Below, piece after piece: positions 25,055 to 27,510 of a DNA stretch of 55,932 bases. A program made the position numbers and the translations under genes. Source of the DNA: Actinomycetota bacterium. GTDB taxonomy: Bacteria > Actinomycetota > Humimicrobiia > Humimicrobiales > Humimicrobiaceae. The notes beneath the pieces were generated by a model that saw only the letters and a list, made by a program, of their open reading frames with translations, did not search any database and was not told where the DNA came from. Positions within the stretch are counted from its first letter, which is position 1; each line of letters opens with the position of its first letter. The stretch spans positions 1-55,932 of the forward strand of contig JBNJCW010000004.1 in assembly GCA_051744345.1 (NCBI GenBank). Reading direction: 5' to 3'.

Positions 25055-26356
25055 ATGTCAAAGAAAAGAAGACTGGATACCATAGCACTGCATGCCGGCC
25101 AGGAAGAGCCGGATCCCGCAACCGGGGCCAGGGCTGTCCCTATCTATCAGACCACCTCTTTTGTTTTCAAGGATACACAGCATGCAGCAGACCTTTTTGC
25201 CCTAAAAGAATTCGGCAATATCTATACCCGGATAATGAATCCCACCAATGATGTTTTTGAAAAGAGGGTGGCAGCTATTGAAGGCGGAACGGGTGCCCTG
25301 GGCGTGGCTTCGGGCCAGGCAGCCGAAACCCTTTCCCTTCTGGCCATTACCGAGCTGGGGGAGGAAATAGTTTCTGCGGACAATCTTTATGGGGGGACCT
25401 ACCAGCTGTTTCACTATACCTTCCCCCGGCTGGGAAGAAAGGTTAAGTTTGTGGATTCCCAGAAACCTGAGGAATTCAGGAAGGCAATTGGCCCCAAAAC
25501 AAGGGCCGTTTATGCTGAAACCATTGGCAATCCCAAACTGGATATCCCAGATTTTGAGAAGCTGGCCGGGATCGCCCATGATGCGAACATACCCCTGGTT
25601 GTAGATAATACCCTGGGGATAGGGCTGGCTGCCCCCATAGACTGGGGTGCCGACGTCGTGGTTCTTTCAGCTACCAAGTTTGTAGGGGGCCATGGTACAT
25701 CTATCGGGGGGGTTATCGTAGATTCAGGAAATTTTGACTGGGGAAACGGAAAATTCCCCCAGTTTACAGAGCCTGACCCCAGCTATCATGGAATAAAATA
25801 CTGGGAAACATTTGGTGATTTCCCCGATATGGGAAATATTGCCTTTATTGTTAAGGTAAGGGTACAGCTGCAGAGGGATCTGGGCGCGGCACTGAGTCCC
25901 TTTAACTCTTTCCTTTTCCTGCAGGGACTGGAGACGCTTCCCTTAAGGGTAAAAAAACATTCAGAGAACGCCCTGGCCCTGGCCGGGTTCCTTGACAGCC
26001 ACCCTCTGGTTAAGTGGGTCAACTATCCCGGTCTTAAAAACCATCCCAGCCACCAGCTGGCCGGCAAATACCTGGATGGTAGATACGGGGCCCTTATAGG
26101 TTTCGGCATAAAAGGCGGCCTGGAAGCGGGAAAGAAATTTATTAATTCGGTTAAGCTGCTTTCCCATCTGGCCAATATCGGAGATGCCAAAACCCTGGTT
26201 ATCCATCCCGCATCAACCACCCATCAGCAGCTTACTGAACAGGAACAGGCGCAGACCGGGGTAACCCCGGATTATGTTAGGCTTTCTGTGGGGCTGGAGG
26301 ATATCGAGGACATCAAGGAAGATATCGATCAGGCATTAAAAAAGGCAGTGCAATGA
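25055..26356 (+). CDS. metY: O-acetylhomoserine aminocarboxypropyltransferase (sulfhydrylase)
   Basis: [24 protein letters not shown] Lys in [30 protein letters not shown]. Confidence 0.94.
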
Positions 26357-27510
26357 GAGGCGGGAAGGAAATGGAAATGGGCAAATACAGGTATCTAAAA
26401 ATCAAGGCGGAACTGCTGACCGAAGGCATACAGGCTAGCCCCCAGGCCCTGGAGGGAGTGGGAAAAGCATACAAGGAGCAGAACCACGGGCTTTTCGGCT
26501 GGGATTTTGAGGATCATGCCCGGATGCTGCTTCCTGATGATTTTGTCCTGCCTGACGACACCACTGTACAGTTCAGGAAAAACAGCCGCTCTCCTTTTAA
26601 GATTTACCTTACCCCGGAAGGCTTGAGGCTAAGCAGGAGCGGGCAGGACATATGCGGTGTTGAGTGGATCCGGCGGCCTGCCTATTACAGCAAAAAGACA
26701 GCCGGGGAAAACAGGATGGTTGAAATCGGGCAGATTGGCGGCCAGGACTGCCTCTTTTTTTGCTACCAGAATTACTGCAGCCATTTTGCCAAAGCCCGGC
26801 AGTGCCTTTTCTGCAACCTCAATTCAACCCTTAAGACATACCGCTCTGTACTGAAGAAAAAGGATATTGAAGATATGGGGGAGGTTGCCCGGGAGGCATT
26901 CGCTGAAGGGAAAGTAAGGCATGTGCTGCTTACCGGCGGCTGCTTCAGCCACCAGAAAGAAATAGAGCTTGTGTCCGGTATTATAGGGTCGATTAAAAGG
27001 CACACCGGCATGGAAAAGGTTCCCGGCACAATCCTTCCCTCTCCTGCCAGAAGCAGGGATGAAATAAAGAGGTATCATGATACGGGGATAGGGGCTATCG
27101 GTTTTTCCATGGAGATATGGGACAGCAAACTGTATGAGGCCATCTGCCCCGGTAAGGCAGAGAGCACCAGCCACCAGGATTTTCTAAACTCCATTGAGGA
27201 GGCGGTAAAGATATTTGGACAAGGAAATGTATACGGTGTTTTTGTGATGGGCCTTGAGTCCAAAAAAACATTCCTGGAAGGAGTACGCGCGGTTACAGGC
27301 ATGGGCGCCAGTGTGGTCCCATTTGTGTGGTCACCCAATCCGGGCTCGGCATTTGAGGGGCACCGGGCACCTGTGGCTGACTGGTTTGTGGAAACTGTGC
27401 TGGAGGCCGGCGATATAGCGGCTGGCTCAGGTATTATGCCCAATGAAGAGAACCATTGTTACAAATGTGACGGAAACAGCCTTTTGTACGACGCATTGAG
27501 GCTGAAGTGA
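26353..27510 (+). CDS. Radical SAM protein with non-canonical CX8CX2C motif
   Basis: [28 protein letters not shown] and C-terminal CYKC. N-terminal KAELLTEG. Resembles MSMEG_0568/LipS1-like proteins from memory. Start may be ATG 26371 or 26377. Confidence 0.75.

Follow-up and report, generated by a model that had tools for sequence, protein, structure and literature searches.

A CX8CX2C-type radical SAM gene associated with sulfur amino-acid operons across bacterial phyla and Bathyarchaeia

We analysed a window of 55,932 nt, i.e. the whole stretch from positions 1 to 55,932 (forward strand) of contig JBNJCW010000004.1 in the genome assembly GCA_051744345.1 of an Actinomycetota bacterium (Humimicrobiaceae; the genome is 97% complete). 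The window carries a gene for a variant radical S-adenosylmethionine (SAM) enzyme, hereafter called the rSAM gene, between a metY gene (O-acetylhomoserine sulfhydrylase) and a cbs gene (cystathionine beta-synthase). Comparison of homologous loci indicates that the rSAM gene is genetically coupled to O-acetylhomoserine sulfhydrylase and to cbs, cgl or cysK across domains, and that sulfur amino-acid metabolism probably contains an undescribed step. The association of this enzyme with sulfur genes is robust and apparently unpublished: our literature search found no paper that links a radical SAM enzyme with metW/metX or with MetY. We tentatively propose that the enzyme performs a radical C–S transaction that supplies or salvages reduced sulfur for MetY.

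The genomic contexts of homologous genes were scanned using one genome per species (47 loci, with the gene found in 46 of them); neighbouring open reading frames (ORFs) were compared by BLAST, clustered de novo, and named by Pfam and NCBIfam models (e.g. MetW by PF07021, 244 bits, and MetX by NF001209, 513 bits). The 46 species-level loci encode homologues that are 55–78% identical to the window protein and represent at least 12 bacterial phyla plus Bathyarchaeia. The hosts include Actinomycetota, Chloroflexota, Desantisbacteria, Omnitrophota, deltaproteobacteria/Syntrophaceae, Firestonebacteria, Elusimicrobia, Spirochaetota, Poribacteria, Calditrichota, Armatimonadota, Planctomycetota, Acidobacteriota, a Dethiobacter, Bathyarchaeia/Thermoproteota and a Methanobacteriota metagenome-assembled genome. 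A gene for MetY, MetX, MetW, CBS, CGL (cystathionine gamma-lyase) or CysK is found at most 7 kb away in 22 out of 46 loci. Outside the window the commonest home of the rSAM gene is metY-metX-metW: metW is directly upstream in 13 out of 46 loci, the full metY-metX-metW-rSAM string is seen in 10 loci, and two more have a cbs/cysK gene inserted before the rSAM gene. In about ten loci the rSAM gene is directly flanked by cbs and/or cgl, and in Bathyarchaeia a cysK-rSAM pair is followed by a gene for a ThiI-like PP-loop protein with an NFACT-R_2 domain. The same gene order recurs across at least six phyla. The strong link of homologues to sulfur amino-acid genes, on which the original prediction depended, is thus seen across phyla and domains.

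Other neighbours of the rSAM gene were also recurrent. PP-loop sulfur-transferase homologues (LarE- or ThiI-type) are encoded next to it or a few genes off in the window and in loci L001, L008, L009, L014, L024 and L074, and in four loci a gene encoding an Lrp/AsnC regulator lies upstream of the rSAM gene and overlaps it. A conserved small partner gene downstream of the rSAM gene was looked for, and none was found. Among the genomes with a solitary rSAM gene (n = 25), 21 encode a MetY above the TIGR01326 cut-off and 24 have some match to this model; in Bathyarchaeia, metY-metX-metW is found elsewhere in the genome, unlinked to the rSAM gene.

The rSAM gene appears to be inherited together with MetY. 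The MetY proteins of carriers, including those of Bathyarchaeia, are 76–87% identical to the window MetY, against 55–69% for relatives from the window family that lack the rSAM gene. In a maximum-likelihood tree, 22 MetY proteins, all from rSAM carriers and including the window MetY, form a clade (support 100/100) that spans at least six phyla (Actinomycetota, Chloroflexota, Omnitrophota, Desantisbacteria, deltaproteobacteria and Bathyarchaeia) and is nested in a carrier-only clade of 31 rows (95/92). Nine MetY proteins of relatives lacking the rSAM gene are placed elsewhere: seven group apart, in a clade that also holds the second MetY copies of two carriers, and two are on a basal branch. 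Identities of the rSAM and MetY proteins to their window copies are correlated (Spearman 0.70, n = 33).

Its sequence identifies the gene product as a true radical SAM enzyme within the uncharacterised NF045502 superfamily, and SAM cleavage is predicted for it. It passes the Pfam Radical_SAM model (PF04055; 37.1 bits vs a gathering score of 29.5, residues 149–307) and the NCBIfam variant_rSAM model (NF045502; 345 bits vs a cut-off of 125, model positions 2–354 of 357). It contains a CX8CX2C motif, and CX3CX2C is found nowhere in the protein, so that its description in the original prediction as a non-canonical radical SAM enzyme is borne out. The best named secondary match is TIGR04043, the MSMEG_0568 family (106.5 bits vs a cut-off of 303.7; E 1.4e-30, residues 76–378). 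LipS2 (NF053743) gives 33.4 bits vs a cut-off of 270 (E 3e-8) and BioB (TIGR00433) 15.5 bits vs a cut-off of 225; the ThiH, BioB and MoaA models all score below 20 bits, and neither LipS1 (NF053742) nor LipA (TIGR00510) matches at E <= 0.01. The original prediction had pointed to a resemblance to sulfur-inserting enzymes of the MSMEG_0568/LipS type: this holds at the superfamily level, given these two E-values and LipA as the best fold match (see below), but not as membership, the scores being far under the cut-offs. Two of the marks it gave for this resemblance (an N-terminal ELLTEG and the CX8CX2C spacing) are features of the whole NF045502 superfamily rather than of those families.

When a profile built from the homologues was searched against 1.84 billion representative proteins, 1,692 matches were obtained, 1,100 of them at 1e-10 and 199 at 1e-30; a profile search of the PDB with 46 homologues gave no sequence at E <= 1. 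Only about 2–3 full-length clusters (50% identity clusters) score above 460 bits and the next is at ~340, so within a diverse superfamily the window protein falls into a single tight group of orthologues. The MSMEG_0568 family is part of this same superfamily and CX8CX2C is common to both, but its Nit1C neighbours (nitrilase, GNAT, AIRS-like protein and flavin mono-oxygenase) are all missing beside the window rSAM, and the Nit1C arrangement is found in none of the 46 related loci; the Nit1C papers list the MSMEG_0568-type enzyme only as a cluster member, with no reaction assigned. The archaeal LipS1/LipS2 pair (NF053742 and NF053743) shares a distant barrel similarity with the window rSAM, with scores far under the cut-offs of 230 and 270; unlike this pair, the window rSAM has no paired second enzyme and no lipoate context. 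CX8CX2C clusters are catalogued at RadicalSAM.org (Megaclusters 4-6-1, -3, -5 and -6; PMC9477430). These clusters and NF045502 are like the window protein in their CX8CX2C, their N-terminal domain motifs and a C/A-P-G-K motif; NF045502 is a catalogue entry ('radical SAM protein') with no assigned reaction, and the sub-clade of the window protein adds C133, C137 and C197.

Conservation of individual residues was assessed among 42–46 orthologues (54–78% identity) and among 117 superfamily representatives. About 100 positions are invariant among the orthologues. The cysteine-rich segment reads D-C133-LFF-C137-YQNY-C142-SHFAKARQ-C151-LF-C154-NL, and the C-terminus contains NH-C369-YK-C372; the extra CYKC pointed out in the original prediction is thus present, with both cysteines invariant in homologues, and the conservation of these motifs goes far beyond chance. 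The elements of the protein are as follows:

26353-26742, forward strand: N-terminal domain (residues 1–130), two helices and a beta sheet.
26749-26763, forward strand: C133 and C137 on strand beta-1; among orthologues C137 is invariant and C133 is 98% conserved.
26776-26814, forward strand: CX8CX2C (C142/C151/C154), presumed to ligate the SAM-binding [4Fe-4S] cluster; located in the loop that follows barrel strand beta-1.
26941-26943, forward strand: C197, part of a TGGC that takes the position of the SAM-binding 'GGE' motif; invariant among orthologues and specific to this subfamily (seen in only 3 of the 117 superfamily representatives).
27145-27156, forward strand: C265-P-G-K268, a superfamily hallmark (81%, 98%, 97% and 99% conserved, respectively); C265 is invariant among orthologues.
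27457-27468, forward strand: C-terminal C369-x-x-C372, preceded by an invariant H368; invariant among orthologues, with a CxxC in 47% of the superfamily.

C142, C151 and C154 are conserved in 100% of the superfamily representatives and are invariant among the orthologues, and 113 of the 117 representatives have the CX8CX2C spacing. The SAM-binding elements are kept (T194-G-G-C197, E254 and G295-VFVM-G300-L-E302; superfamily conservation is 99% for G196, 98% for E254, 98% for G300 and 94% for E302), with C197 occupying the place of the 'E' in the GGE motif. According to the alignment, six further cysteines are conserved in the orthologous group, five of them invariant (C133 is the sixth); in the superfamily C137 is rare and C133 is found in about a quarter of the proteins.

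An AlphaFold2 model of the whole protein, built from a 46-sequence alignment, has a mean predicted local distance difference test score (pLDDT) of 89.8 and a predicted TM-score (pTM) of 0.90. It shows a beta/alpha barrel (pLDDT ~90; first strand at residues 133–139), a short inserted helix (residues 143–147) in the CX8CX2C loop, and the CxxC on a C-terminal tail. The best matches of the model in a Foldseek search of the PDB are LipA (5exi, E 1.8e-8), PylB (3t7v, 2.2e-8), ThiH (7pd1), HydG (4rtb), BioB (8vcw) and NifB, at 12–18% identity and a TM-score of ~0.45, so the predicted fold is in the BioB/LipA/PylB/ThiH neighbourhood and close to none of these. Auxiliary clusters that hold or donate sulfur are a feature of several of the matched enzymes. 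Like the window rSAM, LipA (5exi, 5exk and 4u0p) and BioB (8vcw) have cysteines beyond those of the SAM cluster, some of them on the C-terminal tail; however, their identity to the window rSAM is only 14–16%, with a TM-score of ~0.45. LipA is marked by an N-terminal CX4CX5C motif for its auxiliary cluster and by a C-terminal RSSY that provides a serine ligand; both are missing in the window rSAM, which has C133-X3-C137-X4-C142 instead. From their positions on strand ends and on the tail, the extra cysteines are candidates for forming one cluster site.

The N-terminal domain, modelled alone, has a pLDDT of 86.4 and no Foldseek match in the PDB at E <= 0.001, so it offers no functional hint; this 130-residue domain is predicted to be novel. 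Its invariant residues include K41-E-Q-x-H-G-L-F-G-W-D51, H55, P61-D-D63, Q73-F-R75, R108-P109 and Y112, and motifs such as YKEQ.., LPDDF and RP.YY are common to paralogous subfamilies.

Sulfur-related contexts are also seen for paralogues. Every paralogue examined passes NF045502 and none passes TIGR04043. In three Actinomycetota genomes a variant radical SAM gene is found in the order Sir-two unknowns-CysH-Sat-variant radical SAM-Na/sulfate (DASS) symporter-Usp-CysK (L126:51-8614, L132:2199-10908 and L140:78-4127; L140 is cut at the contig start and retains only the part from the variant radical SAM gene to CysK). In another example, which belongs to the class of the window genome (L075:703-11804, minus strand), two tandem variant radical SAM genes share one operon with genes for CysH and ATP sulfurylase. 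On one side of the tandem pair this operon has corrinoid methyltransferase genes (for MtrH-like and UroD/MtaA-like proteins and RACo) and DUF6951, and on the other, together with CysH and ATP sulfurylase, it encodes a class I methyltransferase (TehB/CpaM-like) and a B12-binding radical SAM protein; by its gene content it would combine corrinoid methyl transfer with sulfur assimilation. The contexts of three other paralogues (L129, L134 and L138, with UbiA, an ammonium transporter and a lipid kinase) are not related to sulfur. One protein, P0270 (714 amino acids), is a natural fusion of a class I methyltransferase (Methyltransf_11) and a variant radical SAM protein. Genes of the class I methyltransferase fold recur beside variant radical SAM genes: MetW, the methyltransferase of the window and that of the L075 operon.

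The operon of the window contains the following genes and sites:

24473-24500, forward strand: promoter-like site ahead of rrf2, TTGACA-16-TATAAT (12/12), a consensus match only.
24546-24992, forward strand: rrf2, encoding a CymR/IscR-like regulator of the Rrf2 family that has a CX6CX5C cysteine triad; 127.7 bits with Pfam Rrf2 and 128.5 bits with NCBIfam rrf2_super (cut-off 73.3).
25055-26356, forward strand: metY, O-acetylhomoserine sulfhydrylase; TIGR01326 653 bits (cut-off 495).
26353-27510, forward strand: NF045502 variant radical SAM gene, uninterrupted; 385 amino acids as the longest ORF, with a probable start at ATG 26377 (377 amino acids).
27507-28886, forward strand: cbs, cystathionine beta-synthase with a CBS-domain pair; TIGR01137 540.5 bits (cut-off 510), Pfam PALP and CBS; probable start at ATG 27519.
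28876-30012, forward strand: cgl, a pyridoxal phosphate enzyme of the cystathionine gamma-lyase/gamma-synthase family; Pfam Cys_Met_Meta_PP 489.5 bits.
30015-30857, forward strand: homologue of LarE-type PP-loop ATP-dependent sulfur transferases; TIGR00268 304 bits (cut-off 150).
30871-31488, forward strand: class I SAM-dependent methyltransferase, 205 amino acids; Pfam Methyltransf_11/25.

The Rrf2 regulator scores 136.6 bits with the CymR model, under its cut-off of 195, and for the cgl product the best NCBIfam models score slightly under their equivalog cut-offs. The rSAM gene is tightly packed between metY and cbs and runs in the same direction. The 4-nt overlaps with both genes that were described in the original prediction exist in the longest ORFs: the first ATG of the rSAM gene overlaps the metY stop in ATGA (26353-26356), and its TGA overlaps the cbs GTG in GTGA (27507-27510). 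They need not apply to the real genes, since the probable starts are downstream. Homologues begin at the equivalent of M9 of the rSAM protein in the alignment (MNEYRYLELK...) and a Shine-Dalgarno-like run, GGGAAGGA, is found 7 nt before ATG 26377, so the true start is probably 26377 (377 amino acids), leaving a gap of 20 nt after metY. The N-termini of cbs homologues match ATG 27519 (MGKEFNN...), and the true cbs start is probably this ATG, 8 nt past the rSAM stop. The name 'transsulfuration operon' given to this gene set also holds only in part: cbs-cgl corresponds to reverse transsulfuration, but metY encodes direct sulfhydrylation, and the operon is better described as one for direct sulfhydrylation (metY) and reverse transsulfuration (cbs-cgl) under an Rrf2 regulator.

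Some features of the regulatory regions were noted in passing. A hairpin followed by a T-run is located between rrf2 and metY at 25002-25020 (TTTCCAGCATAGCTGGAGA TTTTTAAAAA), a possible attenuator or partial terminator between the regulator and the structural genes. The metX-metW genes of the window genome are on another contig beside a second Rrf2 gene: on contig C12 (14200-18158) this gene is divergent from metX-metW, and a canonical lipA follows ~900 bp farther downstream. An AT-rich repeat with CTATA/TATAG half-sites (ACTATTAATACTATA-like) is found at about 24505-24535, after the operon promoter; similar repeats recur in the rrf2-metX intergenic region (C12:14617-14744) and upstream of a third Rrf2 gene that adjoins cysK (C53, ~7445-7670). 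This repeat, which is of low complexity, is a candidate Rrf2 operator of a sulfur regulon.

LarE-type genes are also linked to MetY and CysK genes under Rrf2 regulators in four relatives lacking the rSAM gene (L062, L063, L065 and L069), which suggests that the LarE homologue works in sulfur amino-acid synthesis and not in the synthesis of the lactate-racemase cofactor. The ThiI-like PP-loop protein mentioned above is 330 amino acids long, includes a segment rich in cysteine and carries an RNA-binding-type domain, NFACT-R_2, at its C-terminus (L014:1484-2473, L024:7682-8674, L008 and L009). In Bathyarchaeia its gene comes just downstream of the rSAM gene, and in Omnitrophota a few genes farther on; the protein scores under every NCBIfam cut-off.

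One homologue, from a Thermoproteota single-cell genome (L027:7001-8131), is interrupted by an in-frame stop where the others have an invariant Q127, and carries a tyrosine in place of C265. Selenocysteine at this stop was considered and rejected because the stop replaces a glutamine and C265 itself is changed to tyrosine; this copy is probably a pseudogene or an amplification/sequencing error.

The window genome and five related Actinomycetota carriers have no ATP sulfurylase (PF01747), no adenylyl sulfate/phosphoadenylyl sulfate (APS/PAPS) reductase or CysD (PF01507), and no sulfite reductase (PF01077), and must therefore use reduced sulfur. We also considered whether the rSAM replaces an enzyme missing from its hosts. 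A substitute for LipA is rejected, as the window genome has a canonical lipA (C12:17307-18158; 336 bits vs a cut-off of 310), and so do 13 out of 14 bacterial carriers tested; lipA was not found in the four Bathyarchaeia/Thermoproteota genomes tested. A substitute for S-adenosylhomocysteine (SAH) hydrolase or LuxS, converting SAH to homocysteine, is likewise rejected, since the window organism and each of the other 17 carriers tested encode SAH hydrolase (AdoHcyase, PF05221). MetE/core-MetE (PF01717) was not found in the window genome, but a MetH homocysteine-binding domain is encoded on its contig C116, which makes a role of the rSAM as the missing methionine synthase unlikely; besides, an enzyme that consumes SAM could not yield net methionine.

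A similar operon without this enzyme is known. In Bacillus subtilis, yrrT-mtnN-mccA-mccB is a CymR-controlled operon for the conversion of methionine to cysteine. The window operon resembles it in placing an Rrf2 (CymR-type) regulator over genes for a SAM methyltransferase, cystathionine beta-synthase and cystathionine gamma-lyase, but MetY, LarE and a radical SAM enzyme, all present in the window operon, are not known from the B. subtilis one. Given this parallel, rrf2, cbs, cgl and the methyltransferase gene of the window can be explained without the rSAM; and with SAH hydrolase elsewhere in the genome, the rSAM is not a substitute for MtnN or LuxS. Additional components that feed homocysteine or cysteine synthesis have precedents in anaerobes: MA1821/MA1822 (COG1900 and a NIL-ferredoxin), the methanogen homocysteine system, and the thiocarboxylate routes HcyS/MetY, CysO/CysM and MetM/MetO bring in extra Fe–S or sulfur-carrier parts. 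Their protein families are unrelated to the window rSAM, and a radical SAM enzyme is, to our knowledge, not part of any of them.

The radical C–S transaction that we tentatively propose would begin with the reductive cleavage of SAM to a 5'-deoxyadenosyl radical, which would attack a small sulfur-containing or sulfur-accepting metabolite held beside a second, subfamily-specific site of Cys-ligated metal or Fe–S (candidate ligands are C137, C197, C369 and C372, with or without C133). A C–S bond would then be broken or made; sulfur insertion or C–S cleavage had also been put forward in the original prediction. We favour the salvage direction, in which cleavage of an organosulfur compound would yield HS- or CH3S- for use by MetY: cleavage takes up most of the limited confidence that we place in the proposal as a whole. 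MetY would join HS- or CH3S- with O-acetylhomoserine to give homocysteine or methionine, CBS and CGL would carry the sulfur onward to cysteine, and the Rrf2 regulator would turn the set on when the supply of sulfur or Fe–S is short.

A number of observations weigh against this proposal. First, the rSAM gene is unevenly distributed: it is present in only five out of 37 genomes of the window family (three out of five of its genus), about half of the 46 loci have no sulfur gene within 7 kb (several of these loci begin at a contig end), and a congener of the window organism (L061) has metY (81% identical) followed directly by cbs, cgl and the methyltransferase gene, with neither the rSAM gene nor larE, so that the rSAM is dispensable in an otherwise equivalent operon. 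Second, the MetY comparison set for genomes lacking the rSAM gene is drawn from one family only, that of the window. Third, the Sat-linked paralogues keep CX8CX2C but have IAPGK for ICPGK and are without C197, C265 and the CxxC at the C-terminus; the superfamily is therefore linked to sulfur independently of the extra cysteines, which weakens the idea of an auxiliary cluster that gives or takes sulfur. Fourth, neither SAM, SAH or T-box elements nor any SAM or Met riboswitch turned up in the window or among 10 solitary-copy loci, and no transporter or obvious organosulfur-catabolic gene is present beside the rSAM gene in the window. Finally, the stoichiometric use of SAM would be costly for a bulk flux.

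The uneven distribution extends to the phylum, in which the rSAM clade is found in six out of 401 sampled genomes and any member of the superfamily in 49 out of 401. Other relatives have the arrangements Rrf2-LarE-MetY-CysK or Rrf2-MetY-CysK-MetX-MetW. The rSAM is accessory, an optional extra in the sulfur amino-acid operons that strict anaerobes carry, and its patchy distribution is best explained by horizontal transfer.

Among the alternatives, the one nearest to our proposal is a thiolation like those of LipA and BioB: the radical would abstract a hydrogen at an unactivated carbon in a substrate resembling an amino acid, and sulfur of the second cluster would be inserted, giving homocysteine or another thiol in parallel to MetX/MetY, with the neighbouring PP-loop protein or sulfide rebuilding the cluster. 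The presence of LipA and BioB among the best fold matches fits this reaction, as do the six extra conserved cysteines (the C-terminal CxxC tail resembles the C-terminus of LipA, which completes its auxiliary cluster), the LarE- or ThiI-type homologues near the rSAM gene in seven loci, and the dependence of the carriers on reduced sulfur. We nevertheless consider it unlikely: MetX and MetY of the same operon already yield homocysteine, so a second and far costlier route looks redundant; sacrificial donation of sulfur fits a flux at the level of cofactors and not of amino acids; and the missing CX4CX5C and RSSY motifs of LipA, together with the sulfur-linked paralogues that have no extra cysteines, speak against a LipA-like auxiliary cluster.

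Chemistry without sulfur on an amino acid of the aspartate/methionine family is a further alternative to which we give only a minor share of belief. The enzyme would then act on homoserine, O-acetylhomoserine, methionine or 2-aminobutyrate, as a mutase like PylB, a lyase like ThiH or a Cys-dependent epimerase or reductase, and the extra cysteines would hold a structural Zn or an electron-transfer cluster, or donate a hydrogen atom (C265). PylB and ThiH rank level with LipA in the fold search; C265-P-G-K268, with its nearly universal lysine, suits a carboxylate substrate and a cysteine hydrogen donor; the regulator directly upstream in four loci is of the amino-acid type (Lrp/AsnC); in some members of the superfamily the three cluster cysteines are the only ones; and some paralogues have contexts unrelated to sulfur. 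This alternative, however, leaves unexplained why three separate subfamilies are found in sulfur-assimilation operons, why the rSAM travels with one MetY clade, and why PP-loop sulfur transferases are recurrent neighbours.

The co-inheritance with one MetY clade could also suggest a maturase that modifies MetY, CBS/CysK or another pathway protein. The packing between metY and cbs, which looks like translational coupling, and a conservation of 55–78% across phyla and domains, as expected for an enzyme with a protein partner, agree with this explanation. It is improbable all the same, because the MetY of the congener belongs to the same clade and sits in an operon lacking the rSAM gene, the rSAM gene of Bathyarchaeia is unlinked from metY-metX-metW, and the rSAM has no SPASM/twitch or peptide-recognition domain. 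Still less credit is due to the idea that the rSAM gene is a hitch-hiker in mobile met operons, its neighbourhood having no functional meaning: the patchy distribution and the half of the loci with no sulfur neighbour would be accounted for, but not the same gene order in at least six phyla, the three arrangements in which the association occurs (metYXW-, -cbs-cgl and cysK-...-PP-loop), or the paralogues in sulfate-assimilation operons. A LipS1/LipS2-type lipoyl synthase or an MSMEG_0568 (Nit1C) enzyme that entered the operon by chance is hardly credible at all, for the weak secondary matches to TIGR04043 and LipS2 and the top rank of LipA in the fold search are set against scores that refute membership, the canonical lipA of the carriers, a consistent met/cys context, and neighbourhoods with no nitrilase, GNAT, AIRS or lipoate-protein ligase genes, the last of which the original prediction had already found missing from the neighbours in the window.

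The proposal of a radical C–S transaction for MetY may be widened, more speculatively, to the superfamily: NF045502 enzymes with CX8CX2C may be an unrecognised class for sulfur acquisition in anaerobes, with the met-linked clade performing a new radical C–S reaction that feeds a dedicated MetY clade. We put this forward as a doubtful extension. The reaction could set sulfide or methanethiol free from an organosulfur compound without the use of O2, or it could form the homocysteine thiol directly by radical chemistry. If true, it would provide a new entry of sulfur into methionine and cysteine where sulfate reduction is impossible, spread by horizontal transfer between bacteria and archaea.

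The syntheses of homocysteine and cysteine count as solved textbook pathways, yet a conserved enzyme is embedded in their operons across uncultured anaerobes and Bathyarchaeia. If the rSAM makes or breaks a C–S bond for MetY, this would be a new step of sulfur assimilation, and the first function for the CX8CX2C branch of radical SAM enzymes (about 1,100 representative clusters at E <= 1e-10). The metY-metX-metW-rSAM string is a concrete, cloneable cassette of four genes, and the step that it may encode could explain the sulfur supply of subsurface microbes deficient in sulfate reduction.

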